Assembly (NCBI RefSeq): GCF_046119375.1
Contig: NW_027362769.1
Coordinates: forward strand, 362,390,001 to 362,454,000
DNA from: Phyllobates terribilis
Taxonomy: Eukaryota
Length of the DNA: 64,000 nt
Reading direction: 5' to 3'
Below are positions 25,221-56,385 of the stretch, piece by piece. Within the stretch, counting starts at the first letter, position 1. The number at the start of each line of letters is the position of its first letter. A program made the position numbers and the translations under genes. The notes beneath the pieces were generated by a model. That model was not told where the DNA came from and searched no databases. It worked only from the letters and a program-made list of their open reading frames with translations.

Positions 25221-27180
25221 TAATAATAATAATAATAATAATCTTTATTTATATAGCGCCAACATATTCCGCAGCGCTTAACAATTCACAGGTTCATGTA
25301 CAACAGTCATAAGTAACATAGCTAAAGATAATACAATAATTACAGCAAAAATATTGACGACCCTGCTCCTAAGAGCTTACAATCTACAATGAGGTGGGGG
25401 TGACACAAAGTACAATGGCTTATTTACAAGGATGGTCCAGCCATCTTGAGGGGATGAGGGATAGATAGAGGCTGCATGAGCTTGTCACCAGCCAGTATCT
25501 GTAGTGCTTTTTGGTTAGGTGGAGACTTATGTTTGGAGAAATAAGGAATGGGCTATAAGAATATAAAAGGACTTTGATTAGAGAACGTGATAGGCCACCC
25601 TAAACAGATGTGTTTTTAGGGAGCGCCTAAAACTGTGTAAATTGTGGTTCATCCTAATTTCTTGGGGTAGAGCATTCCAAAGAATAGGTGCAGCTCGGGA
25701 GAAGTCTTGAAGCCGGGAGTGGGAGGTACGGATTAGTGCGGATGTTAGTCGAAAGTCACTTGCAGAGCGTAGAAAACGGGTAGGCCGATAAACAGAAAAG
25801 AGGGAAGAGATGTAGGGTGGTGCCGCACTGTGGAGAGCTTTGTAGGTGAGAGCAAGCAATTTAAATTGGATCCTATAATTCATGGGCAGCCAGTGCAATG
25901 ACTGGCACAGAGCGAAAGCGTCTGAGTAACGATTAGCCAGATAGATGACCCTGGCTGCAGCATTAAGGATGGACTGGAGGGGGGAAAGTCGAGTGAGGGG
26001 GAGGCCAATTAAGAGAGAGTTACAGTAGTCAAGGCGGGAGTGGATCAGGGCAACAGTGAGGGTTTTTGTTGTTTCCAAGGTGAGAAAGGGGCGGATTCTA
26101 GAGATGTTCTTCAGGTGCAAGCGACAAGAGCGGGCAAGAGATTGTATGTGGAAGGTGAAGGAGAGATTGGTGTCAAACACAACGCCCAAGCAACGCGCCT
26201 GCTTGCTCGGCATTATTGTGGTGCCACACACTGAGAGAGAGATGTCAGATTTAGAGAGGTGAGTAGACGGCGGGAACAGAAGAAGTTCAGTTTTTGAGAG
26301 GTTGAGTTTCAGATAGAGAGTGGACATGATTTTAGAAACTGCGGCCAGACAGTCACTGGTGTTCGGTAGTACAGCGGGGGCAAGGTCAGGGGATGAGGTG
26401 TATAGTTGTGTGTCATCAGCATAAAGATGATACTGCAAACCAAATTTGCTGATTGTCTGTCCAATTGGGGCTGTGTAGAGAGAGAAGAGAAGAGGGCCAA
26501 GGACTGAACCCTGAGGAACCCCAATAGTGAGAGGAAGAGGGGAAGAAGTGGAGCCAGCGAACGATACACTGAAAGAGCGGTCAGATAGGTAGGAGGAGAA
26601 CCAGGAGAGAGCAGTGTCCTTTATGCCGATTGAGTGAAGCATAGAGAGTAGGAGGTGGTGGTCAACGGTGTCAAAGGCTGCAGAGAGGTCAAGAAGAATG
26701 AGCAAAGAGTGGTCACCATTACATTTTGCTGTCAGAAGGTCATTGGTTACTTTGATGAGTGCAGTTTCTGTAGAATGTAGAGGGCGGAAGCCGGACTGTG
26801 ATGGGTCTAGAAGAGAGTGAGTGGAGAGGTAGCTGGTAAGGCGGGAGTAGACCAGGCGCTCCAAGAGTTTAGAGATGAAGGGAAGATTGGAGACTGGTCT
26901 GTAGTTGTTTGTGCAGGAAGGGTCAAGAGAGGGCTTTTTTAATAATGGAGTGATGATGGAGTGTTTGAAGGAAGAGGGGAAGATACCAGAAGAGAGGGAG
27001 AGGTTGAAGATTTTAGTTAGGTGAGTAGTGACGACTGAAGAAAGAGACTGGAGTAGATGTGAGGGGATGGGGTCAGTGGTGCATGTGGTGGGATGAGAAG
27101 AAGAGAGGAGCCTGGAGACTTCGTCTTCTGTGACTGGGTCAAATGTGGAGAGGGATCCAGAGGGGATGTGGGGGGGTGAG
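25221..27180 (-). mobile_element. 5'-truncated L2/CR1-group LINE
   Basis: (ATT)n tail at 25221-25242 with terminal agcgctgcggaatatgttggcgctatataaataaag. RT motifs [54 protein letters not shown]. Confidence 0.93.
25578..27180 (-). CDS. L2 ORF2 fragment (RT domain); the frame stays open upstream of the tracked ORF start
   Basis: Tracked ORF 25578-26864 extends in frame to ...[19 protein letters not shown]...; no endonuclease domain, so non-autonomous. Confidence 0.8.
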
Positions 27181-27234
27181 ACTCACGGCACAGAATTTGA
27201 TAACATTAGGTCATCATATTTAATAAGTTGTCAT

Positions 27235-32345: not shown

Positions 32346-33667
32346 ATGGTATGGGAGTGGGATAAATAATTAAACGGGCCACAGAGAAGTTGATAAACGA
32401 TTTAATGCAGACTTGTAAATGTTACCTTCTGGAAGACTCTGCATTCATAAAAAAACAAGGGAAAAACTATTGAAAGCATTCCATAACCTGTCATTCCTCA
32501 ATTGATGGAGCTGCAGGATGATGGACTGATGGGGCGCTCCGATCTGAGAGAGTAAGCTCTCACTTGTCATAGTTTAATCACTGATAAATTTGATATACAG
32601 TAGGAGACAGATGTCATGATTAATATTGAAAGGGCAACAATGAGGCAGACTGAGGCGTACACTAACTTACAGGGAAGCAACAGTCTGCAGATATTTAATA
32701 AAAATAAGCTTAGCTGACTATTGATAATAGCTGTTCAAAACCATCTCCTATCGCTAAGCCGCTGGGGAAATATAACTGTAAAAGACCGAACCCCTTCTGC
32801 TATTAGAGGAAAAAATCCATAAACGCCATTTTCTTTCTTACCATTAGCAAAAAAAGCTAAGCAATATATGAATCCCCTTATCCCACAAAGAGGATCTATT
32901 CCTAATCATAAGTCGTAACAATAATTTTGTTAATTCTATATACACAGTAGGAACTCTATACCTGCACAGGAAAAAAAAAGTCAAACTAAATTTAACCCAT
33001 AGAAACCACTATTTGGAGAAATATATTTCACCAATCTCAACAAAATCATTTTCTAGATCTGATGATGCTTTCCATGGAAAAAATATGTATCATCCGAAAA
33101 AACAACCTGCCAACCTCGATTAATTATTTCAATAAACAGCGCACATCATTTAAACTACAACTGGCTAATAGTGTTGAGCCACCCCCGTAGTGTTCGAGTT
33201 CGGTTCGGTTCGTCGAACACCCGTGTGTTCGCCGAACTGTTCGTCGAACTGTTCGTCGAACACCTTCGAACACCGTTAAAACCAATGGCAGGCAAACAAA
33301 AACACATAGAAACACATAGAAAACACCTTCAAAGGTGTCCAAAAGCTGACAAACTGCTCAGAAGACACAACTAACACATGGAAAAGTGACAAGTACATAT
33401 AGTCATGCGAAAAGAAAAGAGGTGGAGGAGTAAAAGGAGGGGGAGACACAGATATAGGCATGTCATGCCCTTCTAAAATCCAAAAAGTGAGAAGCCGAGA
33501 CGGCCAGTCCGCTCCTGCCCGTGCCACCTCCGTGTCGCCGGGTTTGTGCCAGAGCCGCGGTGAACCCTGACGGCCAGCCCCCCTCTCCCAATACTGGTGC
33601 CTGTCCGCTGGTGGGTCGAGAGAGCCCCCCTGTGGTGGAGGCAGCTCTAAGCTTTTTAATTTAAATT

Positions 33668-33946
33668 GTCCCTCTAATTTGAATTAATACACTTTAAATC
33701 CATTTACAAGGATCTATTGGAGGGCAAGTCTCATGCCAGCAGCCGCGTAATTCCAGCTCCAGTAGCGTCCACTAAAGCTGCTGCAGTTAAAAAGCTTTTA
33801 TAAGGATCGAGCTCGGCTGTCCACCGCAAGGCATCCTAGTGCCAGTCCCAGCCCCTATGCCTTGGGGTGCCTCCTGATGCTCTTCACTGAGTATCCCGTG
33901 GTCCCGAAGCATTTCCTTTGAAAAAATTAAGTGTCCAAACTACAGG
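33668..33946 (+). pseudogene. 18S rRNA-derived fragment (helix 18 / 530-loop through the start of V4/ES6)
   Basis: cactttaaatcc...ggatctattggagggcaagtct..tgccagcagccgcg-taattccagctcca.tagcgt...aaag.tgctgcagttaaaaagct...gatgctctt.actgagt.tcccg...cccgaagc.ttt.ctttgaaaaaatta is collinear with 18S as recalled; diverged and partial. Confidence 0.92.
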
Positions 33947-34052
33947 TGGTGTAGCTTGCTTAACAGCCGGGATAATCCGCTGACTAGCAGACACTGCTAC
34001 TAGGCACAAAGTATTTCCTGGGCTAGATGCAGTTAAAAATTTGTAAGTAGAT

Positions 34053-35845
34053 ACTCTCGTTGGATGCTGAGAAAGCATTCCATAGAGTCTCCTGGCACGC
34101 CATATATGATTCTCTTAAAAAGCTTGGGGTAGGGGTCTAGGGGACCCTTTTATAGCCAAAATCACGGCCCTGTATCACAATACGTCACCTAGGCTGAAGA
34201 TAAATGGAACTGTAGCACCGAGGGCTCGGTTGCTACAGACGTATTGCACCTCACCCAGAGGTGTGATATCTCACTCTCAGATAAGGATGGAGTGTGGATC
34301 AGGACCCGACACCTGCATGCATTACACCACATTGCCGTGGGGCAGGGCGACCAATATGCCCCTGAGATGGGCACGACAGTCCCTGTCCCTGGCTGGAGTG
34401 GGGGGAGGGAACACTGAGGAAGGGGAACCCTGCAGTGCAGGAGCAGGGAGGAAGCAGTTCCTGGGTGCATTGAGAAGGGAGTATAAAAGGTGGGCACCAT
34501 CTTAGTTCAGTGCAGAGAAGTCTGAGCAGAAGTGGCAGGGAGCAGGGGCTAGTAACAGAGGCCCAGGCCTGCAAGAGGGAGAAGGAAGGAAGAGGAGCGG
34601 AGAAGGCTCCAGGAACGAGGAATGAAGGGATCCCATGGGGGGGGACGGGCGAGTCGCCACCGCACGCCCGAATCCACCTGCGTGGAGGGGTCAGGCCAAA
34701 GGGGGAGACCGGTCCCCGAACTAGTGGAGGCAGGAAACGACCCTCAGCTAGAAACCGGAGGCTCTGACATTTTATGTGGCGCAGCCCCTTGCTCCACCCG
34801 CTAGGAAGGCACCACATAGGGTCAGGGAAACTGGCGCCAAGTTTACCAAGAGGAGGCCCGAGGCAGCCGGACAGAAGTGTTGGTAAGAAAGGCCAGACAA
34901 AGGACACACAAAGGGGGTCCTGTGAAGCGCTCCAAAGTTATCTGGGAGTTGTCTGAGCCCCTCACCTGGTGAGCACAGTACGACGTGGGCAGCCGTTACC
35001 TGCAGACGTGGTCTGGATAATAAGAACTGTGAGTAAAGGCCCTGAACTGCATCACTGACTCCGTGTCGTTACTGCTGCTGCCCTGCACCATCACCCCCAT
35101 CCTCCGCATACACTGCCCTGAGGCTATACTCCTCCCGTGGGGAGTTATGCTACGCTCTGCTGCACCCACAACACCAGCCTTAGCGGTCTGCCCTGTAGCG
35201 GCGGTTCACTCTGACCGCAATCCACGGGTGGCGTAGTCGGACATTTAAACATCAAAACCACATAAATAGTTCCGCCACTGGTTTGACCGCCCTGAGCCAC
35301 GGAACCGGATCGCCGCCACGAAGACTACAACCACCAGCATCCACCAAAAAGGGTCCGGCTCCGGGTGTCCCAAGGCCCAGGGGGTGCGTCAGAACATTTT
35401 CATCACCTTTCACAATCACCAATGGGACAAGGCAGGGATGTCCTCTGTCCCCTCTCTTATACATCCTAGTGACGGAGCACCTGCTCTCATCAATTCGCCA
35501 TAACCCCAATATTAGGTGGATTGAGGTGGGAGGCACCGAGTACAAGTGCTCTCTATTTGCTGATGATGTCCTAGTATATATCACTCAATCACATATATCC
35601 ATCCCTGCTGTTATGGCTGAAATAGATCACTTTGTTACATGGTATAATTTTAAAATCAATGCAGCGAAGTCTGAGGCCCTAGATGTCTCCCTCCCTAAAT
35701 CCATATAGGATTCCATCCAGTCCAACTTTCCCTTTGCCTGGCCCTCACAGGGTATCAAATACTTAGGAATTCCTATTCATAGAGACCTCTCCCATCTATG
35801 TTATCTTAATTTTGGGCCCTTTATTGAACAATTCCATACAGACCA
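34053..35845 (+). mobile_element. Internal L1 ORF2 (RT) fragment split by a solo LTR
   Basis: LSLDAEKAFHRVSW...KINGT | FSSPFTITNGTRQGCPLSPLLY...LFADDVLV...KINAAKSE...IKYLGI. The frame rejoins across the GAAC TSD. No L1 3' end. Confidence 0.9.
34211..35391 (+). mobile_element. Solo LTR (Gypsy-type), 1181 bp
   Basis: TG...CA ends; 4-bp TSD GAAC at 34207-34210 and 35392-35395; TATAAAA at ~34483; 3' part homologous to the LTR at 43617-44637. Confidence 0.93.
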
Positions 35846-35911
35846 CGGTTGGCAAGTTAGAACTGTAAGATTCACTACGTGAACCACTGGTGTTTTGTGG
35901 AAAAGCACATG
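35846..35911 (-). pseudogene. Diverged duplicate of part of the hAT transposase C-terminal coding region (left piece; the right piece is at 37280-37410)
   Basis: 35846-35911 matches 38065-38134, and 37280-37410 matches 38215-38345. A Tc1 is inserted at the TA of acatgTA. Confidence 0.85.
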
Positions 35912-35913
35912 TA

Positions 35914-37275
35914 CACCGCGTTCCAAATTATTATGCAAAAAGTGTTTAGGAGTGATAAGGGAAGAATTTGTTTGTTTGTCAGTTAAACTCATTGATGGTG
36001 ATGTGTGTCAGGGCTCTTTATATCACTGTAAGCAATTGCAGACACCTGTGCTAATTAGTTTGGCAGGTGTGTCCAATGAAAGGCAAGACTACTTAAGAAG
36101 GCTCTCTCACATTATTAAGCAGCCTACATTTTCTGCCAAAATGGGAAAGAAAAAGGATGTGTCGGCTGCTGAGAAGCAACAAATTGTGGAGTGTTTAGGT
36201 CAAGGCATGACTACAATCAACATTGTGCGATGATCAGGATGAAGTGTCTTGGCAATCAAGAAGTATGTAGCTGATTCACAGTACACACGTGTGCGTGCTG
36301 ATAAGGGCAAATTGAGGACTCTTTCCTACAGGCAATTACGTCAGGTTGAAAGAGCAGCGGCAAAAAAGCCTTGTCATAGCAGCAGACAAGTTTTTGAAGC
36401 TGCTTGTGCCTCCAACGTCCCCCGAACAACAAGATGCAGGGTCCTTCAGAGGTTTGCAGCTGTGCATACGCCATCCTGTCGACCTCCTCTATCCACTTCA
36501 CACAAGCAGAAACGGCTCCAGTGGGCCAAACATTACATGAAGACTGATTTCAAAACTGTTTTGTTCACGGATGAGTGCCGTGCAGCGCTCGATGGTCCAG
36601 ATGAATGGAGTGGAGGATGGCTGGTTGATGGACACCCCACGCAAACACGGCTACAGCGCCAACAAAGAGGAGGTGGAGTAATGTTTTGGGCTGGAATCAT
36701 GGGGAGAGAGATTGTCGGCCCCTTTAGGATCCCTGAAGGCGCTAAAGATGAACTCCATAATGTATGTGGATTTTCTCAAACAGCACTTCCTGCCATGGTT
36801 CAAGAAGAAGAACCGTGTATTTCACAGCAAGATCATTTTTCTGCATGATAATGCACCATCTCATGCTGCACATAAAACATCTGCATCTCTGGCTGATATG
36901 GGCATAAAAGGGGACAAACTTATGGTGTGACCCCCATGCTCCCCTGACCTCTACCCCATTCAGAACCTTTGGAGCATCATTAAAAGGAGTGTCTATGATG
37001 GCGGGAGGCAGTTCACATCTAAGCAACAGCTCTGGGAGGGTATTCTGTCCTCATGCAAAACAATTGAAGCAGAAACCATCCAAAACCTGACAAATTCAAT
37101 GGACGAGAGAGTTCAGAAGCTCCTTTCGAACAAGGGGTCCTATGTGAAAATGTAACATCACCTAGAATAAAGTTTTGAGTTGAAAACTGTTTGATTTCAG
37201 TTTCTAACAACCTGCTAATGCTTATAATTTCAAAAATGACCATTTTTTTGGTCTTTATTAAAATGAAAAGGTTGA
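35914..37275 (+). mobile_element. Tc1/mariner element, defective; right TIR lost
   Basis: TA followed by CACCGCGTTCCAAATTATTATGCAA. Transposase MGKKKDVSAAEK...VLFTDE...VMFWAGI...LHDNAPSH...SPDLYPIQNLW (catalytic E changed to Q), with frameshifts and an in-frame stop. Confidence 0.92.
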
Positions 37276-37612
37276 TCGAAAAGTTTGGGGGATCTAAGAG
37301 TGTGGCAGCCCAGTAGTCATGATTACTTCGAATTCTGACAATATGAGGGTCATGCTGCAGGTAGTGCAGCAAGAAGGCACTTATGTGTCTTGCGCATCTC
37401 GGAGCCCCAAAATTATTTTCCGGGCTAGATGCAGCTAAAAATTATTTTTAATTTTAAATCTGGTGAAGCTTATTATAGATGGCCTAATAGGATCAGTGCT
37501 GCACACTGCTACAAAGCCCAAATTATTTTCCAGTCAAGATACAGATAAACATGATTAGTAATTTGAAAGCTTAAAACGGTTGGTAGGGTGATTTTAACCA
37601 ATCATCAAGCTT

Positions 37613-40600
37613 TTACTCTCCCCAGGATGACACAGGGGTAGAAAAGTCGTTTCGGATCCATGATTTGTTCATCTTTATGAACGTGAGTCTGTCTACATTA
37701 TCAGTGGAGAGCCGCGTGCGCTTATCTGTCAGCACACCACCAGCAGCGCTGAACACACGTTCAGACAGAACGCTGGCTGCGGGGCATGACAAGATCTCCA
37801 AGGCGTAAGTGGCTAGCTCCGGCCATTTATCCAGATTGGAAGCCCAAAAAGAGCAAGGGTCCAGTGACACAGTCGTGGCTTCAATGTTTACTTGGAGATA
37901 CTCCTGTACCATCGTCTCTAGGCGTTGACTATGTGTCAGACTTCTTGTCTTCTGTGGCCTTGCAAAGGATGGGCTAAAAAAGTGGTGAAATGATTCCGCA
38001 AAATTGATGTTACCAGCAGATACTGTGGTTCTGTTACAGTTTGAGTGCTGAACACTTGACGGTCCCACGGTTGGCAAGTTGGAACTGTGAGATTCACTAC
38101 GTGCACCACTGGTATTTTGTGGAAAAGCACATGTAAGATTCTGCAACAGTCTCTGCTGATACTCCTGCATGCGTGCATCCCTTTCTATGGCAGGAATAAT
38201 TTCTGCAAATTTACTTTTGTACCGGGGATCTAACAGTGTGGCAACCCAGTAGTCAGGATTATTTCTAATTCTCACAATTCGAGGGTCATGTTGCAGGTAG
38301 TGCAGCAAGAAGGCACTCATGTGTGTTGCGCATCCAGGAGCACCAAGTCCCTGTTGTGTTGGTGGCGAGGTAACAATCATGCTTCCTTCCTCTGTCCTCT
38401 CCCCCCAACCTCGCACAACAGAAATGTGATCAAGGTCTCCCTCATCTGATGAGTCTTCCATCAGTTCGTCCTCCACTTCTTCCTGGGCTCCTGCACCTTC
38501 CTCACTAGTTTGGCTGCTACCATGCGCCCTGGTAAAATCATCTCCCCCACCCTCACATGCCTGCCGCCTTGGTGCTGCCGACCGTCTGGACCTTGCAGAT
38601 GTTAGCCCTTCCGCATACAACTCCTCCTCCTCTACTTCCTCCACCTCCTCTTGTGCCACCACCTGACTCCGAATTCTGTTTAACATGTGCTCCAGCATGT
38701 AAATCACCGGAATAGTCATGCTGATAATGGCATCGTCAGCACTAAACATCTTCGTCGCCATTTCAAAACTGTGCAGAAGGGTGCATAGGTCCCTGATCTG
38801 AGACCACTCCTCCAGCGTGATTTGCCCCACCTCTGAATCTCGTTGGCCCAGGCTATACGTCAGAACGTATTGCACCAGGGCTTGTCGGTGCTGCCACAGT
38901 CGCTGCAACATGTGCAGAGTTGAATTCCACCGGGTAGGCACATCGCATTTTAGCCGGTGAAGTGGCAGGCCCAACGACTTCTGTAGAGATGTAAGTCGCT
39001 GAGCTGCGGGATGCGAACGGCGGAAGTGAGCACACAGCGACCGTGCCCTCTGCAGAAGGCCATCTAGTCTGGGATAGTGGGCTAAAAATTGCTGGACAAC
39101 CAGGTTCAACACGTGAGCCATACAAGGCACGTGTGTGACATTGCCCTGGCGAAGGGCCGCACCCAGGTTTGCAGCATTGTCGCACACGGCCTTCCCTGGT
39201 TTCAGGTCCAGTGGAGACAACCATTCATGAAATTGGTTCTCCAGAGCTGACCACAACTCCTCAGCTGTGTGACTCACATTTCCCAGACATTTCAATGTAA
39301 AAACCGCCTGATGACGTTGAGCCCTACTGCCAGCATAGTAAGGAGGTGTGCAGGATCCCTTCTGCGCAGTTAGAAAGCTTGTGGCATGACCAGACAGGCT
39401 TTGGGTGCAGGTGGAAGACCGAGAGGAGGTTGAGGAGGCAGAGGCAGTGGAGGAACTTTGACATAAAGAGGATTGACGCACAACTCGTGGGGACGGCAAG
39501 ACTTGGACAGCAGCCCCTTGTCCTGCTGTCACCATAGTTACCCAGTGCCCAGTCAGCGACATGTAACGCCCCTGTCCATGCCTACTCGTCCAAGTGTCTG
39601 TGGTGAAATGCACCCTGTCACACACAGAGTTTCTCAAAGAAGCGGTGATGTTGTGTGCGACATGCTGGTGGAGCGCAGGCACACCTTTCTTTGAGAAGTA
39701 GTGCCGACTGGGCATCTGGTACTGGGGCACTGCGACGGACATAAGGTCTCGAAAATCCTCTGTGTCCACCAGGCGGAAAGGCAGCATTTCTGTAGCCAAG
39801 AGCTTGCAGATGGTGAAATTCAACCTCTTAGCTTTCTCATGGCTAGGAGGAAATGGTCTTTTACTTGTCCACATCTGAGGGACCGAGGGCTGGCTATTGT
39901 GCTTAGACGGGGTTGATAAGGGTGTCCCCGGCAAACTGCCGGTCTGTGAGGAAGATGCAGGCGGACATGTTAGGTTGCCTTGATCCAAAGGTGGTGCTAT
40001 CGATGTCGGACAGCGCTCAAGACCAGCTGGTGTTACCACCTCCAAAGAAAATGATGACCTGCCAATCACGCTGGCTGTTGCGGGTAAAGAGGTGGCAGGT
40101 CTGCGCCCCAAAACAGGTGTGACTGCTGTCCCCCAAGTCACAGAGGATGAAGAGGCCGCGGATGCACAAGATATGGCAGACGGTGGTTGGCCCGGCCGGC
40201 TAGGCCGCATTGTAGCACACTGAGCTTCCCACTGCAACTTATGCTTCATGTCCATGTGCCGGTTCATGCATGAAGTACTCAAACTATGTATTTTTTGGCC
40301 TCTACTTAGCTTTTGCTGACAAATGTTACAGATAACACGAGTTGGGTCATCTTTATCGATCTGAAAAAATGCCCAGGCTATGCAAGGCTTAGCACCCATG
40401 CGACCTGAAGAGCCACCACGACTTGTGGTGAGAGGCAGAGTTGTGTTTGAGGATGCAGTTGTTGACGTGCTTCCAGTACTACGTCTCTGTCCAGGAAGGC
40501 GCAACCTGACCTCGTCGTCACTAGCATCTTCCTCCACCTCCTCTGCTGACCTCATCTCTTGGCTGACTGTGGGTTGACAGTAAGTGGGATCTCCGACCTC

Positions 40601-41293
40601 ATCATCATCACCCTGTGCGTTATCACACCCGTCGTCCTCAGAGCCAACCTGTTCCTGCCCTGACAAAAAACTAAAGTTGTCGCTCCAATCAGGTATTTGA
40701 GTCTTATCATCGTCTTCCTCATTGTCTCCACCAACAGGAGTTACAGTTTGGGAATGAGGGTCTACATTATGGTCAGAACCTTCTGCGTCTGGTCCTGGAT
40801 CCGACTCATAAAGATTCTGGGCATCAGTGCAGATCATTTCCTCGTCTGGATTCACAGAAGCGCTGGAGTCGACCTCTGATTCCCAGGCTATAGTATGAGT
40901 AAACAGCTCTGCAGACTCAACCATCTGTTCTACCTCATACTCAGACGGGCAGCTGGAGATTTGGGAGCTGTGAGGAAGCAAGTGCGATTTGGGTGACACC
41001 TTTGAGGACTGGAGTATTTGTGATGTTGAAGTTGATGTGGAGGAGAGCCCACTTAAAGGAGCACTTGATATCCGTTGAAGCACCTGCTGTTTTTGTGCCT
41101 CATCTGGAATTTGTAGCGATTGGCGTGGCCGTAAGAAAGGGATCTTATCACATTGTCCGCTAAAAGAAGTAGACATTTTAGTTTGGCTGGAAGATGGTCT
41201 TTCTTCTGCACCTACCCCACGGACACAACCTTTTTTCCCCTTCCCAACACGCCTATTCCCCTTTCCACCAGCAGCAGGCCTTTTTCCACTCAT
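37613..41293 (-). CDS. hAT transposase, intact single ORF (1226 aa): BED finger, DDE catalytic core, hATC dimerisation domain
   Basis: BED finger AWAFF...ICNIC...MNRHMDMKH; D1 FTTDTW; D2 VCDNAANL; CMAH; CDVPTRWNS; LDPRYK; E in SVLSERVFS; RTRLSTDNVDRLTFIKMN. Confidence 0.95.
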   Translation of the reverse strand: MSGKRPAAGGKGNRRVGKGKKGCVRGVGAEERPSSSQTKMSTSFSGQCDKIPFLRPRQSLQIPDEAQKQQVLQRISSAPLSGLSSTSTSTSQILQSSKVSPKSHLLPHSSQISSCPSEYEVEQMVESAELFTHTIAWESEVDSSASVNPDEEMICTDAQNLYESDPGPDAEGSDHNVDPHSQTVTPVGGDNEEDDDKTQIPDWSDNFSFLSGQEQVGSEDDGCDNAQGDDDEVGDPTYCQPTVSQEMRSAEEVEEDASDDEVRLRLPGQRRSTGSTSTTASSNTTLPLTTSRGGSSGRMGAKPCIAWAFFQIDKDDPTRVICNICQQKLSRGQKIHSLSTSCMNRHMDMKHKLQWEAQCATMRPSRPGQPPSAISCASAASSSSVTWGTAVTPVLGRRPATSLPATASVIGRSSFSLEVVTPAGLERCPTSIAPPLDQGNLTCPPASSSQTGSLPGTPLSTPSKHNSQPSVPQMWTSKRPFPPSHEKAKRLNFTICKLLATEMLPFRLVDTEDFRDLMSVAVPQYQMPSRHYFSKKGVPALHQHVAHNITASLRNSVCDRVHFTTDTWTSRHGQGRYMSLTGHWVTMVTAGQGAAVQVLPSPRVVRQSSLCQSSSTASASSTSSRSSTCTQSLSGHATSFLTAQKGSCTPPYYAGSRAQRHQAVFTLKCLGNVSHTAEELWSALENQFHEWLSPLDLKPGKAVCDNAANLGAALRQGNVTHVPCMAHVLNLVVQQFLAHYPRLDGLLQRARSLCAHFRRSHPAAQRLTSLQKSLGLPLHRLKCDVPTRWNSTLHMLQRLWQHRQALVQYVLTYSLGQRDSEVGQITLEEWSQIRDLCTLLHSFEMATKMFSADDAIISMTIPVIYMLEHMLNRIRSQVVAQEEVEEVEEEELYAEGLTSARSRRSAAPRRQACEGGGDDFTRAHGSSQTSEEGAGAQEEVEDELMEDSSDEGDLDHISVVRGWGERTEEGSMIVTSPPTQQGLGAPGCATHMSAFLLHYLQHDPRIVRIRNNPDYWVATLLDPRYKSKFAEIIPAIERDARMQEYQQRLLQNLTCAFPQNTSGARSESHSSNLPTVGPSSVQHSNCNRTTVSAGNINFAESFHHFFSPSFARPQKTRSLTHSQRLETMVQEYLQVNIEATTVSLDPCSFWASNLDKWPELATYALEILSCPAASVLSERVFSAAGGVLTDKRTRLSTDNVDRLTFIKMNKSWIRNDFSTPVSSWGE

Positions 41294-41404
41294 TTTGGTG
41301 GTTAACTAATTCACAACTCTGGAGTTGTTTGCACAAAAAAACAATGGATGGTAACCGAGCAGAGCTGAGTGGCCAAACTGTGGTATTAGGCCAAAACTAT
41401 TGGC

Positions 41405-42135
41405 TGGGTTAGATGCAGAAAAAAAATATTTTTAATTTGCAACCTGATGGAGGTCAGTATAGATGGACTAATAGACCAAGTCCCACACACCGCTAGAAGC
41501 CCAAATATTTTTTCAGAGCTAGATGCAGAAATTTTTTTTATTCAATTTGCAACCTGATGGAGGTCAGTATAGATGGACTAATAGACCAAGTCCCACACAC
41601 TGCTAGAAGCCCAAATATTTTTTCAGAGCTAGATGCAGAAAAAAATTATTTTTAATTTGCAACCTGATGGAGGTCAGTATAGATGGACTAATAGACCAAG
41701 TCCCACACACTGCTAGAAGCCCAAATATTTTTTCAGAGCTAGATGCAGAAAAAAATTATTTTTAATTTGCAACCTGATGGAGGTCAGTATAGATGGACTA
41801 ATAGACCAAGTCCCACACACCGCTAGAAGCCCAAATATTTTTTCAGAGCTAGATGCAGAAAAAAATTATATTCAATTTGCAACCTGCTGGAGGTCAGTAT
41901 AGAAGGACTAATAGAACAAGTCCCACACACTGCTAGAAGCCCAAATATTTTTACAGAGCTAAATGAAGAAAAAAATTATTTTTAGTTTGCAACCTGATGG
42001 AGGTCAGTATAGATGGACTAATAGACCAAGTCCCACACACTGCTAGAAGCCCAAATATTTTTTCAGAGCTAGATGCAGAAAAAAATTATATTCAGTTTGC
42101 AACCTGATGGAGGTCAGTATAGATGGACTAATAGA
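41405..42135. repeat. 110-bp tandem array (about 6.6 copies) in the hAT 5' region
   Basis: agatgcagaa recurs at 41411, 41521, 41631, 41741, 41851, (41961) and 42071. Single related copies lie at ~33990-34045 and ~37410-37545. Confidence 0.95.
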
Positions 42136-43052
42136 ATGATGCTATGCCCAAAAGATTTTACTTCACTAGGTGCAGTAAAAAAATTGGTATTCTATACACA
42201 GGTGGTATATCTTGCAACACAGATAGGCTACTCCACTGACTAACACACTCTGCAATAGGCCAAAAAGGATTAGCTTTGCTAGATTCAGCCAAATGCTGTG
42301 AAAAAAACTTGCACAGCACTGGCACAGACCTGCCTGGCAAAAACTGATAGGAACTGATGTAACCTAGTCCTGAAAAGGACTCCAATTACAATTAGTCTTT
42401 ACTCCCACAATCTATCTATTTAAGAGCACAGACCTGCTTGATAAAAGTCGTAGGAAATGCTGTAACCTAGTCCTTAAAAGGACTGCAATCACAACTATTC
42501 CCTACTCCCAAGCTATCTGTATATTTGTGCGAAAATTGGCTTGAAATTAACAAGGTATAGCGCACACAGCAACAGCGGTGCCGTCTAACACGCAGCTGCA
42601 GCAGTGAGAAAATGGTGGCGACGGGGAAAATGGCTTGGTCTTATAGGGCAAGGACATGTGACATACACTGCCAATCACACATGCCCTTGCTTGTGTGAAA
42701 AAAAGCACTTCGCTCCGTGTGTGCGCTGCTGATAGGCTGACAGATTGCACCTCCCCACTGCAAATGCGGGAAAGAGAAAAAAAAATGGAGATCTTCATTG
42801 TTCCTGCAGAGATCCATCCCCTGCCCCTCCCCCCGCCCCGCTGTACACTCAAACTGCGTATTAACATTAATTTTCATCATTACTGAGAAAAAATCCAGTT
42901 ATGATTTTGGTGCACGAACAGTTATCGAACATAACCTCGAACAGCCGAATTTTTCTCAAATTGTTCGTGTTCGCCGACCGGCTCGAACACCGCCCAAAAC
43001 AGCTCGAATTTGAGATTGGCGAACAGTTCGAGTAGAACAACGCTCATCTCTA

Positions 43053-43470
43053 CTGGCTAACTGGGAAGAAGTATAATCTGAAAATCAGAGGAATACCAGA
43101 ATCAGTGACTCCAGATACATATCTCCATATCTCTATATTGTAAACATGATCACTCATCACTCCGGAATAACCAACCCATAAAGTTGTTTTACAAGCGTAC
43201 AAAATTCCCAAGAAAAAAAAATTTTTGAAGGAGGCTCAGAGACAATAATTGTTTCCTTTAATCATTTTCCATAAGGAGTAAACTACTGGCACTAACAGAA
43301 TTCCAAAAAAGAGATACCGGCTCCTATACTTCCATTCTCCTCAAAGACCTCTACAATACACTTTTCCCTGGGGAATCCTTTAAAAGCACTACAAAGGAAA
43401 TTTTCCAAGCAGGAATTAAATACCAATGGCTGCAGTCAGCAACCCTACAGATAAATTACCATAACAAAAT
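43053..43470 (+). pseudogene. L1 ORF1 remnant split by the hAT (its 5' part lies at ~33100-33168)
   Basis: NLKIRGIPESV...GIKYQW. Joining the two flanks reproduces the paralogue at 31240-31760. Confidence 0.8.
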
Positions 43471-43616: not shown

Positions 43617-44641
43617 TGTCACCCCAGGCCTGGATGCCACAAATAATAAAGGCTGTGTCTGAGAGCAGGAGGGAGGTTCACGGGGTCAGGGACCATTAGC
43701 ATGCAGCACCTCCTGTCCCAGGCCAGTAGGGTGAGCTGGCTGCCCTATAAAAGCTGGAACTGGGGCAGGGTTAGAGAGACCTGAACCCACTTCTGAAGTG
43801 ACCAGAAGGGTTACTTAGAGGAAGGGACAGGTCAGCAGCAGCTGAGGAGTCCGTGAGGCAGAGGAGGAACTGCAGGCCAGGGACACAGGCGACGAGAGCT
43901 GGTCCTGGCAGAGAACCAATCTACCGGACAATGGGGTCCGAGGCTGTCAGGGTTATAAGCCCAGCAGCAGAGAACCAATCCGCGAGGGATTTCATGTCCT
44001 TTGGCCTAAGAAGCCCGGAGGCTCCGCCACTACAGAAGGGACCAGCAAGGCCAAGAGAGGCCAAAGGTAAAAGGAACCCAAGTTGCAAGCCATACGGGCG
44101 AGAAGTACACGGCCAGCTCAGGGACGTGGGCTATTACACCACGAAAAGGGGGATAGTCAGAAAGTGCATAGAGAGAACGGTAGGCCTACACACTCACCCT
44201 GACCAGTGGGGCTCGCCCAAATGCTCTCAGACACCCAGGTCCATTCCTAACCGGTACCACTGTTGGGTCATTAATAATACCTACAATAAAGACCCTGGAC
44301 TGTTTGAAGCGGACTCTGAACTCTTACTATTGCGGCCTGCACTATCACCCCCACCATCCACCTACACTGCCCTGAGGCTACATTCTTCCCATGGGGAGTT
44401 ATCCTACCCCTGTGCTGCACACCAACACCAGCCTCAGCGGTCTGCCTTGCAGCGGTGGTTATCCCTGACCGCAATCCACGGGTGGCGTAGTCGGACATTC
44501 AAAACACTGATAAATAGACTGCCACAATTTGGTCTGACCACCCTGAGCCACGAGGTCGGGCTGCCACTACTACCCCCATCAGCACCGTACACCAGAAGGC
44601 CCGGTTCCGGGTACCCCACGGCCCAGGGGGCGTGTCAGCTT

Positions 44642-44660
44642 TGGCGTAGTCGGCAGGATT
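44642..44660 (+). promoter_or_regulatory. Primer-binding site complementary to the tRNA-Ser 3' end
   Basis: TGGCGTAGTCGGCAGGATT is the complement of ...AATCCTGCCGACTACGCCA (vertebrate tRNA-Ser 3' end plus CCA); lies 4 nt after the LTR end. Confidence 0.9.
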
Positions 44661-45015
44661 GTGACCAACCCGCCACAAACGGGTATTGCGTGCCTGAAAA
44701 AGACTTTATACTTACCTGAGTGAAGTTTCCCGCCATTCGGGGCCGTTTCCCGCCAATCGGAGCCGTTTCCCGCCATCGGGCGCCATCTTCGGGACGCCGC
44801 GCGGGAAGAAAAGCGGCGTGGACGTCAAAAATGCGCGAGACCTGAAGCCCCGCCCTACGCTGAGACGCTGCGCAAGGTCCTGGAAGGAGATCCAGCAGAC
44901 GCCGACGTCATCACCAAGCGACGCAATGTCCTCGCCCAGAGCATCGCGAGCGGAGCCGCGGCCTACAGAAGAGGATCGCCAGAAGGTAGGCCACGGTTAA
45001 CTAGGGGGGAGGAAG

Positions 45016-46008
45016 ATGTCGCACGCGGAGGGACCCTCCACCACCAGCGTAGCCGCTGCAGCTGTGATGCCGTTTTCCATGCCCTATATCCCTGGAGCGG
45101 CCTGGCTGCCACAGTATGCCGGCGAGTCGCATACCTTGGAGCGACTTTAAAGAAAGGCTGTACAGCCTGTTCAAAGTTTATCCCCTGACAGAAGAACAGA
45201 AAGTAAGCATACTGATAGGGCAGTTAACTGGTGCGGCCCAGCGGGAGGTAAAGTCTTGGACAGCTGAGGAGAAAAGGACGGTAAGGGGGGTTCTGACCCA
45301 TCTACGGGACACCTTTGATACCCGTACCTCAGCAGAAATCAAAATGCGGTTCTATGGATGTAAGCAGCGAGCTCCAGATAGCATCAGAGATTATGCCCTA
45401 AATTTACAGAAACCCTGGGAGCAATCAAGCAAGCAGACCCTGGCAGCGTGCAGGATACAGATAAACTATTGACTGACCAGTTCATAGAAGGTCTGCTGTC
45501 CAGCGCCAACAGAACTCAGCTGCGCCTCATGGCCCTCAAGAACCCCGATTTGACTTTTGCACAATTTAAAGATAGGGCCATCCGGGTGCTCCGAGAACCC
45601 GCACCAGGTGGTGCTGTAGCTTCCCGGCGCCCTGCCATCACTTACCACCAGGAGGCAGCGCCCTATCTTGCAGACCTTGTGGGGGCTGATGTGCATGCCC
45701 TAAACCCATCCCCGCCTGCAAACCTGCACCATCAGGTCCAAGAACTAACAAAGAGTGTTGCTGCATTGACCAGGACCGTACAGTCGTTACAGATGGACCC
45801 GTCAGGACCAATCAAGCTGGCTTCCAGTCCGGAGGATGTCCCGTGCCGTCGACGGAGGAGGATCCCGTCATTCAGAGGGAGGCCCGCCGATCGTTACACT
45901 GAGGATGGACAGCCGATTTGCCGCCGTTGTAGCCAGCCGGGACACGTAGCCAGGTACTGTACTTTAAATGGGTCCGACCTGGGGCAGAGGGCCAACCCCC
46001 AGGCATAA
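45016..46008 (+). pseudogene. Gypsy gag (two frameshifts)
   Basis: MSHAEG...AAWLPQYAG...DFKERL...DQFIEGL...CRRCSQPGHVARYC. Confidence 0.85.
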
Positions 46009-46043
46009 GGTCATCAGGCCCGTCTAATTGGCGTGATAAGTAC

Positions 46044-49000
46044 GTGGGGGGACGCCCAGTTTTACCCGTAGTGCTGGACGGTATCCCCATGAGTGCACTG
46101 CTGGATACCGGGTCACAAGTAACTACCATCCCCTATGTACTTTTTAAGCAGTATTGGAGTGACACTGACATAACCCGCTATCCAGACAATAACTTGAGCA
46201 TCATCGCCAGCAATTGCCAGCCCGTGCCGCAGGTGGGGTTCAGAGAGATGACCATTAAGATTGGTAAAGTTGAACTGCCGGCACAGGGAGTGATCATTCT
46301 GGACATTGACCGTCGAGAAAGTCACCCTTAAATAACCTTGGGTACTAACGTGATTGAAAATTGTCTTTCAGAAGTAATGGTAATTTTGCAGCAGGTGGTG
46401 ATGAATGCTAGCTCCAGCCAACAGAGGGTCCTCCAGAAAGAGATAAGAGCCCTGATGAGACGGCAACAGGTAGAACTGTCTGGTGGTGAGATCGGTAGCG
46501 TGAGGATGAGCGACCCGTTCCCTATTGCCATGCCTCCCAAAAGTGAAATGATGATCTGGTGTCGGACTGCAATCGGGTTAAGAGGGAGAGACTACCAAGC
46601 CATGGTAGAATCCGTGTACTCAGACAGCAGGCCCACCATTTTGACAGCCCGGGGGGTGGTTGATGTCCGCCATGGAAGGGTGCCCGTCCGGAACTTAAAC
46701 ATTGGGGAAAGGGAAGTACACTTGCCCAGGTACGCTACACTAGCCAAATTGTATACTGTTGAACACAATGCTGTCAGGGCCGTGGAACCCTTGCCTCCAT
46801 CTCCCCAGGCGGAGGGTAATGGCTCCCAGAAACCCAAGGGGGACTGGTGCCAGAAACTCCACGTGGGTGCTGACTCCACTCCCTTGCACCAAAAACATGG
46901 AGTCTACCGGGTGGTTCAGGAGTACGAGAGAATCTTTAGTAAGCACCCGCTGGACTTCGGCAGAGTGAAAGGGGTAGAACACCACATCCCCACGGGGAGC
47001 CACCCACCAATAAAAGAGAGGCACAGGCCTGTATCCCCTGCACATTATCAGAACGCAAAGGGCATGCTGAGAGAAATGAAAGAAGCTGGGGTGATTAGAG
47101 ATAGCTGTAGCCCCTGGGCAGCTCCCTTAGTTTTGGTAAAAAAGAAAGACGGTACCATGAGAATGTGCGTGGACTATAGAAAGGTTAATCGTATCACCCA
47201 TAAAGACGCGTACCCGTTACCTAGGATAGAGGAGTCTTTAGCCGCACTAAAATCAGCTAACTTCTTCTCTACTTTGGATCTTACTAGCGGGTACTGGCAG
47301 GTTCCTGTGGCAGAGGCTGACAAGGAGAAGACCGCCTTCACCACCCCGATGGGATTAAGTGAATTCAACTGTATGCCATTCGGGCTCTGCAACGCACCCG
47401 GGACCTTCCAGAGGCTGATGGAATGCTGTCTAGGGCACCGAAACTTTGAGACGGTCCTACTTTACTTAGATGACGTGATTGTATATTCGAAGACCTACGA
47501 GGACCATCTAAAACACCTGGCAGAGGTGTTCGAAGCCCTTGCAGGCTATGGCCTGAAAGTGAAGCCCTCAAAGTGTCACCTGTTAAAACCGAAGGTACAG
47601 TACCTGGGGCATGTGGTGAGTACTGAGGGAGTAGCCCCCGACCTTGACAAAGTTACAGTAATCAAGAGCTGGCCAAGCCCCTCTAACATCAAAGAAGTGA
47701 GGCAATTCCTCGGGTTGGTAGGCTACTACCGAAGGTTCATCCCCAGGTTCACCAAGATGGCAGCCCCTATGCAGGACCTCCTTATAGGACAATCTAAGAC
47801 CAGAAGCCAAAAGCCACCCTTCAAGTGGGACAAGCCGGAAGAGGAGTCCTTCCGCCAGCTGAAGATGGCCCTCACGGGGGATGAGATCCTGGCCTACCCC
47901 GATTATGGCCAGCCTTTTATCCTCCACACAGACGCCAGTAATGTGGGGCTGGGAGGCATATTGTCACAAAACCAACAGGGCAGAGAAAGGGTGATCGCTT
48001 ACGCCAGCCGGAAGCTGAGGCCCACCGAGAGAAGCCCAGAGAATTACAGCTCCTTCAAGCTAGAATTCTTGGCAGTGGTGTGGGCCGTCACAGAATGGTT
48101 TAAACATTACCTGGCCTTCGCAAAGTTCACTGTGTACACGGACAACAACCCGGTGACACACCTGGACAACGCAAGACTTGGTGCCCTAGAACAGCGGTGG
48201 ATGGCCCGGCTATCAAATTATGACTTCACAATCAAATACCGGGCGGGCAGAACCAACGCCAATGCAGACGCCCCATCAAGAATGCCCCACCTACCCGAAG
48301 GAGAAGAGGACTCAGAAGAGCTGGAGGAAGTAGAGCTCCCTGCGTACCACCGGTATGGGGCCACTCAGTATTCTCACCGGGTAAGAGACAAAGACCTAAC
48401 CACCGTCATGTTTAATCTCTTACCCCACCACGGCTGGGCTGAAATGCAAGATAGCGACCCTGTAATTCGCCTGGTGAAAGACCTGTTGACCCAGGCTGAC
48501 GCTAGCCGTGGCCCGGATGCTCCAGAGGAACCAAGCAGTTATGGAAGGAGAGAAGCAGGCTCTTCCTCTACGAAGGTAAGCTGTGGAGGCCTACCATGAC
48601 AGAGCGGGACACTTCGGGTGGAAGAAGCTGGAGTTCCTACTGAAAGAGCAGTTCTTCTGGGTCGGTATGAGAGGGGCCATAGAGAAGTGGTACAGGGACT
48701 GCGGCCCATGTAACCTCAGAACGAAGGACGGTACCAACCAGAAGACACCCTTGAGGCCCATCGTCACAAGGCAGCCTCTTGAGTTGGTAGCTCTGGACCA
48801 TGTGAAATTGGCTCCAAGCCGGTCGGGCTACGTCTATGCCCTGACTATAGTGGACCTCTATTCCCGGTTTCTGGTGGTGGTTCCCGTTAAAGACTTGACA
48901 GTCCAAACAGCGGCCAGAGCCTTCCAACAACACTTCTGCTGTCCACACGGGTATCCGGAACAGGTCTTGACAGATCAAGGTCCAGCGTTAGAGGCGGAAA

Positions 49001-50007
49001 TCTTCCAGGAGTTCTGCAACCTCTACGGCTGTAAGAAGATTCGGAAAACGCCTTACCACCCGCAAACCAACGGGCTGTGTGAGAAAATGAATAATATTGT
49101 CATTGATCTCCTCAAGACGTTGCCCCTGGAGGAACGCAGCCTGTGGCCGGAGAAGCTGCCTGACCTGATAGACTTATTCAACCATATCCCTGTGAATGCT
49201 ACCAACTGCACCCCGGCTTACATGATGCGAGCAAGACCAGGTAAGCTGCCTATGGACCTGGAGATGGGAATCCTGACACCCGAGGACACCTCCCCAGATG
49301 CGGACTGGGATACGGAACCGCGGCTACAGTACAAGAAGGTACAGGAGAGTGTGGAGAGGAGTCTGGCTCAAGCGAGAGAAAAGCAAGAGAGGCTCTCCAA
49401 CCAACACACCCCTGCTGGTCCCCTGGAACCTCGCGAGCAGGTCCTGAAGCCGAAGAGAAAGCTTCACAAGCGAGATGACCAGTGGGAGAGAGACCCATAC
49501 ACAGTACTGCAGTCCGACCACAACAACCCGAAGGTATGTGTAATTACCAAATATGGAGGAGAAACCACTAGCACCGTCTCCAGAGACCACCTAAAACGGT
49601 GCCCCGAGCAACTGCAGAGTCCAAGTGAAGATCAAGATGACCTTGAACCCGCAGCGGACAAGGAAGAAATGGTCAGCACCATTCTCGGAGAGTTCCCCCG
49701 GTCCTGGACTCGGATAAACGATGCCATAGTGGTACCCATCCTACACTTCCTTCAACCTACCCAGCAAGAGCCTACAGGAGAGCAGGAAGAACAAGAGGAA
49801 CAAGCAGCCCCGGAGGCAGAAGAACCCATGCCAGCAGCCCAGGAGAGTCAACCCTGTGCTGACAGTGAGCCTGCCATGCCTGCGGTAAGCCAAAGGACCC
49901 GCAGACAGCTGCCTGCACTGCCAGTAAACCCAGCTAGTAGCTGTACCCTAAATGCTAGTGGGGAAAGCCAGGTTAGACCACCACCAGACAGTGGGTTACG
50001 CAGGTCA
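46044..50007 (+). pseudogene. Gypsy pol (protease, RT, RNase H, integrase) with a stop and a deletion near 48575
   Basis: LLDTGSQV; PWAAPLVLVKKKDG, CVDYRK, DLTSGYWQV, MPFGLCNAP, YLDD; TDAS, YASRKL; YHDRAGH...CGPC, ALDH, TDQG, NGLCE. Confidence 0.93.
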
Positions 50008-50470
50008 AAAAAGTGTGGTATACACCAGTAAATTAAAACTGTGGTTTTGCTGTTCCATGGTAAAAAATCTCTATTATCCTGTTTTTAGCTTTTTTTGCCT
50101 TAAAAAAAAACAGTAGTGTCTCCTGACTGTTCTGACACAAAAATATATCTGTTGAAAATAGTCTGGTGTATGCCTGACAAATCCCAGTGTGGTTTTGCAG
50201 TTCTACGGGTAAAATCTCTGTAGTATCCAGTTTTGGGCCTTTGGTATCTAAAAAAACAGTTTGAGTGTGTCGCTCACTGTTCAGCCGCAAATCTATATTT
50301 TTAAAAAAGTCTGGTACACACCAGTAAACAATAACTGTGGTTTTGCCATTTCATGGTAAAAAATCTCTATTATTCAGGTTTTGGTATTTTTTCCGTAAAG
50401 AAAAACAGTAATAGTTTCTCCAAGATTGTTCAGATTGTTTAAAAGAGTTGGGTGTAGGCCAGAGAAATAG
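50008..50470. repeat. Diverged subterminal-type tandem repeats upstream of the second hAT transposase
   Basis: The motif aaagt.tggta.acaccagtaaa...actgtggttttgc..ttc.atggtaaaaaatctctatt recurs at ~50010, ~50160 and ~50305. Confidence 0.7.
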
Positions 50471-50563
50471 AACTGTGGTTTTCCTCTTCCACGGTTCAAA
50501 TCTACTTTTTATTACCCTTTTTCCATTGATAGTGCGAGTGTAAGCTATTTTACTTCCTTTACA

Positions 50564-55193: not shown

Positions 55194-55404
55194 AGTCAAA
55201 TCCACTGTGTTATTTTGGGAGGTGTATTCACATGCACCGCTTCACTCCCACACATGGTTATACGCTTCCTCATTTCTGCTGTTTTATGTTCTTCTCCTTA
55301 TCCTCAGCCTCCACCACCACTATAACACCAGGGTGACCGTGGTCCGTGTTGCCATTATTGAAATGTTGTTTTAATTAACTCTAACCTCTACGACTCTTCG
55401 AACA

Positions 55405-56385
55405 GGAATTGCATTTCCTCCTTATTTTTGTCAGCTTTTGCTTGGAAGGCATAAGCAAAGACTGTGGGAGACCCACTCCCCAATAATGGGAATAATATTT
55501 TTAAGATGCTGTACTGTATGGCTCTTGTAAGGGGCATTAAAAGCATCTTATTATACCACTCTGACCTCCACGTTTCTTGTAAGGGGCATTAAAACCGTCT
55601 TGTTAAGCCACTGGGACCTCCACGAGTCTTCGAACGGGCATTGCAAATCCTCCTTATTTTTGGAAGCTTTTGCTTGGAAGGCATAAGCAAATACTATGGG
55701 AGACCCACTCCCCAATAATGGGACTTATGTTTGTAATATGCTGTACTGCATGGCTCTTGTAAGGGGCATAGCAAGTTGCTCCGTCCTAATTTTTTGAAGA
55801 TTTTGCTTGGAAGGCTTAAGCAAATACTATGGGAGACCCACTCCCCAATAATGCGACTTATGTTTGTAATATGCTGTACTGCATGGCTCTTGTAAGGGGT
55901 ATTGCAGTTGCTCCGTCCTAAGTTTTGGAGGCTGTTGCTTTCTAAAGCATAAGCAAATGCTATGGGAGGCCCACTTCCCAATAATGTGACTTATGTTTGT
56001 AATATGCTGTACTGCATGGCTCTTGTAAGGGGCATTGCAGTTGCTCCGTCCTAAGTTTTGGAAGCTTTTGCTTGGAAGGCATAAGCAAATACTATAGGAG
56101 ACCCACTCCCCAATAATGGGACTTATGTTTGTAATATGCTGTACTGCATGGCTCTTGTAAGGGGCATTGCAGTTGCTCCGTCCTAATTTTTTGAAGCTTT
56201 TGCTTGGAAGGCATAAGCAAAGACTATGGGACACCCACTCCCCAATAATGGGACTTATGTTTGTAATATGCTGTACTGCATGGCTCTTGTAAGGGGCATT
56301 GCAAGTTGCTCCGTCCTAATTTTTGGAAGCTTTTGCTTGGAAGGCATAAGCAAATACTATGGGAGACCCTCTCCCCAATAATGAG
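55405..56385. repeat. 132/133-bp tandem array in the hAT 3' region, including two 52-bp satellite-like monomers (~55523-55640)
   Basis: The ggagacccactcccc motif recurs at 55699, 55832, 55965, 56097, 56229 and 56362. aggggcattaaaaccgtcttgttaagccactgggacctccacg at ~55582 matches the 52-bp satellite. Confidence 0.93.

Follow-up and report, generated by a model that had tools for sequence, protein, structure and literature searches.

The 64,000-bp stretch of Phyllobates terribilis DNA analysed here (hereafter the window; positions 362,390,001 to 362,454,000 of contig NW_027362769.1, assembly GCF_046119375.1) carries a 9884-bp hAT transposon which we read, with a probability of roughly 85%, as a young copy of a huge family whose 3′ arm was loaded stepwise with dead DNA and which has been copied whole, likely by its own transposase. 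The load consists of decayed ribosomal DNA (rDNA), a piece of L1 reverse transcriptase, a solo long terminal repeat (LTR), a dead Tc1 element and a transposase duplicate, and it lies beside an uninterrupted transposase open reading frame (ORF) of 1226 codons. A preliminary description, made from the sequence alone, had named the element with its perfect target site duplication (TSD, the same 8-bp sequence on both flanks), the transposase and these passengers, all of which are present. It had seen a paradox in decayed cargo beside an undamaged ORF, and offered two ways out: a composite assembled earlier and mobile as a unit, or a transposase maintained by selection through ZBED-like domestication.

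A composite transposon copied as a unit

The composite was built earlier and transposes as one unit, as the first of these explanations had it, since its internal junctions are shared by tens of thousands of copies with separate TSDs. Exact-motif counts over the whole 10.57-Gb genome, in which reversed control motifs gave no matches, returned 66,108 for the transposase core and 56,637 for the junction between Tc1 and the transposase duplicate (four degenerate positions). The preliminary description had held that cargo junctions unique to this locus would speak against such movement; they are anything but unique. The young form of the junction between L1 and the duplicate had 21,600 exact matches, and the empty LTR site, where the two L1 parts are directly joined, had 3,704.

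Copies with the same internal junctions but different TSDs, the check proposed in that description, were readily found. Among 33 copies with both ends in view, 30 had an exact 8-bp TSD of their own and 32 a TSD with at most one mismatch, and no flanks common to different copies, as expected of segmental duplication, were found in the 33 except in the pairs L153/L154 and c25/c27. All position-picked samples come from the first 240 Mb of contig C1, and DNA similarity searches of the genome score the best 40 candidates, their counts being lower bounds. The start at 33169 was shared by 20 of 20 copies in one alignment and by all 20 junction-picked copies (98–99% identity), 16 of which kept the Tc1, the other four being a derivative without Tc1 and without the 3′ end of the ORF. 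The full cargo set was present in all ten copies selected by ORF likeness, two of them with a partial deletion or an extra insertion in the LTR. Of the ORF hits that lack the exact junction, 20 were picked by position; 17 of these still had Tc1 cargo beside the ORF, two ended short there and one was a dead sister family.

The window ORF differs by 0.2–0.7% from the ORFs of other young copies, and young copies lie on average 0.26% from their own majority sequence. The youth of the copy explains its undamaged ORF, and the age of its inherited cargo explains the decay there, hence the paradox dissolves: this copy has had too little time to be damaged. Full ORFs were kept in 10 of 20 young position-picked copies, 3 of 20 other ORF-picked copies and 1 of 20 copies from a group lacking the LTR (pre-LTR group), and private ORF changes were neutral in every group (ω, the ratio of nonsynonymous to synonymous rates, 0.95–1.2). 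With an intact ORF in full-length copies, the element probably counts as autonomous in the coding sense.

Taken at 9–10 kb each, some 57,000–66,000 copies would amount to 0.5–0.65 Gb, or about 5–6% of the assembly, an estimate in which exact matches miss older copies and some hits are less than full length. Published shares for poison frogs are of the same order, with hAT-Ac at 5.1% of reads in one species and 2.8–4.9% in two others (PMC12208295, Table 3) and hAT at 3.91% of a fourth poison-frog assembly (PMC11152451); in the available parts of these sources the figures are class totals, with no family structure, cargo or subfamily history. Young copies are often nested in older ones belonging to this hAT or a relative of it (L031-L034, L157, L158, L119), as expected of so abundant a family. 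A search for the 18S family gave approximately 79,000 rough candidates genome-wide, consistent with 18S scrap carried in tens of thousands of hAT copies, and such scraps could disturb rDNA counts made from reads.

Order of loading and layout of the window copy

Four structural stages are present in the genome, each with full-length members bearing TSDs: rDNA only; rDNA with L1; the addition of Tc1 and the transposase duplicate; and the addition of the LTR. In the oldest group (ORF about 90–93% to the window copy) the arm is followed by an additional block of some 810 bp, by pieces of the rDNA 5′ external transcribed spacer (ETS) and 18S, and by an array of a 110-bp tandem repeat; L1, Tc1 and LTR are lacking. 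A sister group has the arm, rDNA, a longer L1 piece and then other fillers, with no Tc1. Pre-LTR copies carry the duplicate, Tc1 and an L1 truncated at 35842, but no LTR at its site; among 20 fetched copies the site was empty in all and Tc1 DNA was present in 19. The solo LTR is the last passenger, inserted with duplication of GAAC.

Compared with real 18S, the group majorities of the 18S piece, taken from oldest to youngest, carry 9, 17, 19 and 29 differences over 267 positions (3.4% to 10.9%), a gradient that gives the direction of loading, the figure for the oldest group being biased downwards as this group was picked by a true-18S motif. The cargo thus kept decaying while on board. Lesions of the Tc1 comprise frameshifts near 36227-36246 and 36740, a TGA at 36928 and CAG (E>Q) at 36961, and about 220 bp of its 3′ end are gone relative to a 1585-bp free Tc1 contig. 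The stop is common to all groups, whereas the E>Q change occurs in young copies but is missing from most pre-LTR ones, hence it arose on board.

Contigs of organisms B and C contain the arm, 18S and L1 running past 35842, without LTR, and those of organism D contain both filled and empty LTR sites. Divergence from the group's own majority was 0.3%, 0.4%, 1.7–1.8% and 1.5–3.8% from the youngest copies to the oldest, with intermediates. At 1.7% and 1.8% the pre-LTR and sister groups are about equally old, and the groups are partly sisters and not strict ancestors. One ORF tree contained chimeric rows and was rooted on the L077 derivative, and its branching order was not used. L077 itself was considered as a cargo-free ancestor and rejected, since its ORF contains an LTR and it is a derivative, and a dead one.

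The block of about 810 bp in the oldest group (L141-L164) sits at window position 33487, comprising more 5′ETS and a reverse-transcriptase-like piece (HYLDDFL motif) which we take to be DIRS-like; the block is gone in later groups. In the oldest copies the position of the remnant repeat unit at 33940-34044 runs on into a long 110-bp array. The array upstream of the ORF (41373-42222 in the window copy) varies in length from about 5 to more than 20 units among copies otherwise 99% alike. The Xenopus 1723 element is also a hAT with tandem repeats in its arms. The window copy has a private 30-bp deletion in the solo LTR at 34548, the 30 bp being kept in all 19 other aligned copies. To the inventory of the preliminary description, otherwise sound, we add the 110-bp units in both arms and the 5′ETS piece joined to the 18S fragment, both of which it had overlooked (Table 1).

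Table 1. Features of the hAT element in window coordinates; TSD, target site duplication; TIR, terminal inverted repeat.
Feature	Position	Strand	Remarks
hAT element	33169-43052		9884 bp between two TSD copies
TSD CTGGCTAA, left copy	33161..33168
TSD CTGGCTAA, right copy	43053..43060
3′ terminal arm of hAT: 11-bp imperfect TIR 33169-33179 and subterminal GTTCG-type repeats	33169..33490	-
Decayed rDNA 5′ETS piece	33491..33652	+	83% to the genome's own rDNA; 410-570 bp upstream of 18S there
Decayed 18S rRNA piece	33672..33939	+	85% to the genome's own 18S; Rfam SSU (small subunit) E 4e-14
Leftover unit of the element's own ~110-bp tandem repeat	33940..34044
L1 reverse-transcriptase piece, part 1	34045..34210	+	terminates in LTR TSD GAAC 34207-34210
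Solo LTR, TG..CA, 4-bp TSD GAAC	34211..35391	+	splits L1 piece
L1 reverse-transcriptase piece, part 2	35392..35842	+	cut at 35842; ~175 bp longer in sister subfamily
Transposase duplicate, part 1	35843..35913	-	94% to 38065-38135
Dead Tc1, left TIR after TA, 3′ end and right TIR gone	35914..37275	+
Transposase duplicate, part 2	37288..37410	-	89% to 38224-38346
1.5 units of ~110-bp repeat	37403..37571		unit number differs among subfamilies
Intronless hAT transposase ORF, 1226 aa	37613..41293	-	BED finger 306-352, catalytic core, dimerisation domain 1133-1207
110-bp tandem array upstream of ORF	41373..42222		~7 units in window copy
5′ arm: subterminal repeats and TIR 43042-43052	42140..43052	-

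The element has the features of the hAT superfamily, with its exact 8-bp TSD, TIRs of 11 bp (5–27 bp being typical of hATs) and subterminal repeats, and the ends are the same in all copies compared. Its termini are TAGTGTTGAGC and, as reverse complement, TAGAGATGAGC, with 9 of 11 letters alike. The stop-free transposase has a predicted BED finger (zf-BED, E 4e-10), DDE core, CxxH motif and C-terminal dimerisation domain (Dimer_Tnp_hAT, E 2e-14), and matches the Hermes transposase at E 2e-19 (PDB 4d1q, 8edg). Within the Hermes alignment D705, C724-x-x-H727 and E1178 are present, and D566 is presumably the first catalytic D, judged by its motif. Catalytic core, CxxH, tryptophan motif and dimerisation domain all align with Hermes, from which the present protein of 1226 aa differs in long acidic and Ser/Thr-rich insertions that evolve neutrally. 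Its nearest named proteins are anuran 'ZBED4/6-like' proteins (38–52% identical over residues 470–900); lizard relatives show 30–37% identity. The L1 piece as a whole (34045-35842) matches RVT_1 at E 2e-15.

The remainder of the window contains further mobile elements. A Gypsy-type retrotransposon (zinc knuckle, reverse transcriptase, RNase H, integrase) occupies 43800-50030, and the cargo LTR is 76% like its LTR at 44287-44638. A second, distantly related hAT (65–72% DNA likeness in the core), broken by stops, lies at 50500-56300. A solo LTR from the same broad family of LTRs (4-bp TSD TGGG) occupies the 5′ portion of its ORF, and a tandem array of its own follows the stop codon. Long interspersed nuclear element (LINE) remnants lie at 25578-27182 (−; a reverse-transcriptase piece) and 59294-62962 (+; an ORF1-like coiled-coil ORF, then endonuclease and reverse transcriptase).

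Rearranged members of the family have also been amplified. In the derivative family of L077 and L081-L100 the 3′ arm is inverted at the right end in 7 of 11 copies, that is, a rearranged copy was mobilised in trans. In an amplified 7.6–8.0 kb derivative (L042, L051, L053, L054) part 1 of the duplicate recombined with the ORF within the first 16 bp of the 71-bp duplicate, which removed the Tc1 and the 3′ end of the ORF, so that the element's own cargo breeds its non-autonomous parasite.

Probable selection on the source lineage and competing explanations

Majority sequences of the young and pre-LTR groups differ at 81 of 2566 cargo positions, 32 of 2661 nonsynonymous and 21 of 1017 synonymous ORF positions (nonsynonymous against cargo changes, p=1e-6). 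Within the folded domains (BED finger, core and C-terminal region) there were 23 nonsynonymous to 27 synonymous changes (N:S) between subfamilies against 587:228 private ones (p=2e-4), with ω of approximately 0.3–0.5 between subfamilies; the deficit persists at non-CpG sites (p=7e-5) and with the oldest group added (63:54, p=4e-5). Low-complexity parts of the ORF showed 31:11 between groups against 442:165 private changes (p=1). Stops made up none of 92 between-group changes and 70 of 1422 private changes (P=0.01), and the shared ORF indels, of 21, 9 and 3 bp, are all in frame. The folded transposase domains were probably kept working by purifying selection between copying waves, along the lineage of source elements. 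The suggestion that the transposase is under selection thus appears right for this lineage and its folded domains, and wrong for a host gene.

These counts used 23 young copies, 15 mid, 14 pre-LTR, 10 of 10 sister and 19 of 20 oldest copies (L147 is plain rDNA). The pre-LTR rows were L075 and 13 of the 20 fetched copies, with L101, 103, 105, 109, 112, 117 and 119 left out as truncated or chimeric. Intermediate, partial or deleted copies (c05, c09, c11, c13, c25, c29, L042, 046, 051, 053, 054, 061-064, 066, 070, 072, 073, 076 and 080) were not assigned to a group.

The hAT enzyme binds subterminal repeats and cuts at the TIRs, carrying the inner DNA regardless, and hAT copy number rises via excision from replicated DNA or gap repair. 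As the transposase needs only the ends, DNA between the stop codon and the 3′ arm would ride free. Each passenger would have entered one source copy which then founded the next wave, the LTR and Tc1 presumably by their own insertion and the rDNA, L1 and transposase pieces likely through repair or deletion events. Insertions in the ORF or 5′ arm would kill a source copy and those behind the stop codon would not, which may be why junk collects there. Less surely, wave-founding copies may tend also to make the enzyme, which would keep it intact. Tentatively, at somewhat less than even odds, we read the family as a succession of source elements maintained by purifying selection, comparable to LINE-1 masters, that has grown to about 5–6% of the genome without horizontal transfer. 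Perhaps, and with similar reservation, silencing is so strong that only a rare copy per germ cell is both transcribed and open, so that founders supply their own enzyme; Zhang et al. argue likewise for LTR elements, in the available text (PMC7070016).

Several observations weigh against a simple lineage of self-serving source elements. The derivative family of L077 and L081-L100, with its four shared stops and an LTR interrupting the ORF, numbers at least 40 copies at 99%, and the 3′ end of the ORF is missing in 4 of 20 young copies; as dead families amplify in trans, any preference for self can be only partial. Cargo and ORF trees disagree in places, which points to recombination between copies and blurs the notion of one lineage. 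No wholly cargo-free copy was found, rDNA being present already in the oldest group reached, itself picked by the 18S motif. The N:S test over the whole ORF is weak (p=0.06–0.08), the last step, from mid to young, shows 8 N:1 S, and the folded domains were pooled only after the per-domain counts had been viewed.

The main rival, which we consider unlikely, is that the transposase stayed intact through repeated entry into naive genomes, by horizontal transfer or hybridisation of related frogs, while neutral within each genome. This would agree with Zhang et al., who in the available text report purifying selection on DNA transposons only across transfers (PMC7070016), with the neutrality of private changes and with the occurrence of the family under four organism labels at high or partial word shares. 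However, one genome holds all four stages at graded ages with intermediates, the older stages are common to organisms B and C and the LTR stage to D, as vertical descent predicts, and the passengers match the genome's own rDNA and repeats.

Less likely still, the selection signal may be an artefact of grouping, majority calling and recombination, in a neutral family carried by whichever of its thousands of intact copies is expressed. The weak whole-ORF test and the youngest step would suit this, as would groups of 10–23 copies chosen by structure and the late pooling of domains. On the other hand, the deficit survives when only non-CpG sites are counted, does not extend to the low-complexity parts of the ORF and recurs in three separate steps (6:11, 13:16, 40:27), and the ORF shows no shared stop or frameshift, while the cargo gained shared indels.

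It is improbable that the cargo benefits the element, with the LTR or 3′ block altering transcription, RNA ends or silencing and loaded variants winning. The LTR form is indeed far commoner (about 57,000 copies with Tc1 in total, compared with 3,704 exact empty sites), but hitchhiking with an active source copy explains these counts, pieces were lost or replaced between subfamilies, and the cargo has changed as fast as neutral sequence or faster (3.2%, compared with 2.1% at synonymous sites). Domestication of the ORF at this locus as a ZBED-like host gene, its passengers decaying after insertion, can practically be dismissed: the ORF is intact and its database relatives are labelled ZBED4-like or ZBED6-like, but identity to the horse protein named ZBED6 is only 25%, and in place of few copies, lost TIRs and purifying selection on the locus we find 66,108 ORF-motif copies, the same passengers and lesions at many loci with other TSDs, both TIRs and the TSD retained and neutral private changes (ω 0.96–1.2).

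Relation to known elements and significance

The closest precedent is hobo_AC of Anolis carolinensis, an autonomous hAT of 9–15 kb with 290 copies described by Novick et al. (PMC3014272). According to the available part of that paper it shares with the present element the 8-bp TSD, an 11-bp TIR, carried fragments of other transposons and recombination between copies, shows no sign of lateral transfer, and is held by its authors to raise the copy number of its passengers. The TIR of non-autonomous hobo_AC, TAGGCTTGAGC (Table 1 there), matches 9 of 11 letters of the window element's left end, a likeness of the ends. The two families differ in scale (290 copies there, about 60,000 here, 200-fold), in composition (non-autonomous copies dominate there, full-size ones here, 16 of 20) and in the origin of cargo, read there as captured blocks of old DNA, whereas here the LTR and Tc1 were inserted and subfamilies with and without them survive. 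A selection test on the hobo_AC transposase was not found in the available part of the publication (PMC3014272). As the anole element behaves likewise, the 'novel system' of the preliminary description was too strong a term.

Pack-hAT-N8_XT of Xenopus tropicalis (Tan et al., PMC8277862) is likewise, in the available text, a frog hAT that moves captured host DNA with distinct TSDs, and template switching would suit the rDNA and L1 pieces here as a model. That element has 3–5 copies, a 291-bp capture and a non-autonomous carrier (PMC8277862), whereas in the present family the carrier is coding, the layered cargo measures approximately 4 kb and copies number in the tens of thousands. As in multicopy Pack-TIRs, the internal non-TIR DNA has a parental copy elsewhere (rDNA) and occurs at several loci with distinct TSDs; however, the cargo is rDNA scrap and dead mobile elements evolving neutrally, with no piece of a protein gene. 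Tol2 of medaka is an active autonomous vertebrate hAT (the activity being Tol2's) with a nested Angel miniature inverted-repeat element absent from a sister form, but in the available text it has one small passenger, 4.7 kb, four exons and horizontal spread (bioRxiv 10.64898/2026.01.12.699174). Xenopus Kolobok elements are autonomous, 7–14 kb long and have conserved ORFs in frogs, and belong to a different superfamily (PMC6004289, available part). ToxhAT was considered as a precedent and rejected for its TA TSD and the lack of a clear transposase in the available text (10.1101/2024.03.04.583430).

With hobo_AC, the Xenopus multicopy Pack-TIRs and Tol2 with Angel preceding it, the kind of element is already known. 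What is new is the scale, the dominance of full-size copies, the subfamilies recording each loading step and the selection signal. Our literature search, which took in neither subscription papers nor supplements, yielded no published description of this hAT family and no account of a hAT lineage under purifying selection within a genome; as Repbase and Dfam lay outside it, the family may already have an entry in such a library.

An estimated 0.5–0.65 Gb of the 10.6-Gb genome is attributable to this one family, a case in which a DNA transposon contributes directly to genome gigantism. Approximately 4 kb of every copy would be annotated as Tc1, Gypsy LTR, L1 or rDNA, giving false young bursts of those classes and under-counting hAT. 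A vertebrate hAT moving 10–11 kb at such scale may serve as a large-cargo vector, as proposed for hobo_AC. The neutral cargo is a built-in clock and control, and a neutral passenger block tied to a coding sequence, together with dated subfamilies, makes selection on DNA transposons within a host lineage testable (PMC7070016, available part; model in PMC13558583, available part). If the chain of self-supplying source elements is real, a cut-and-paste transposon is able to give its own coding copies an advantage, which would contradict the current view of DNA transposons as sharing their enzyme, neutral within the host and self-limiting.

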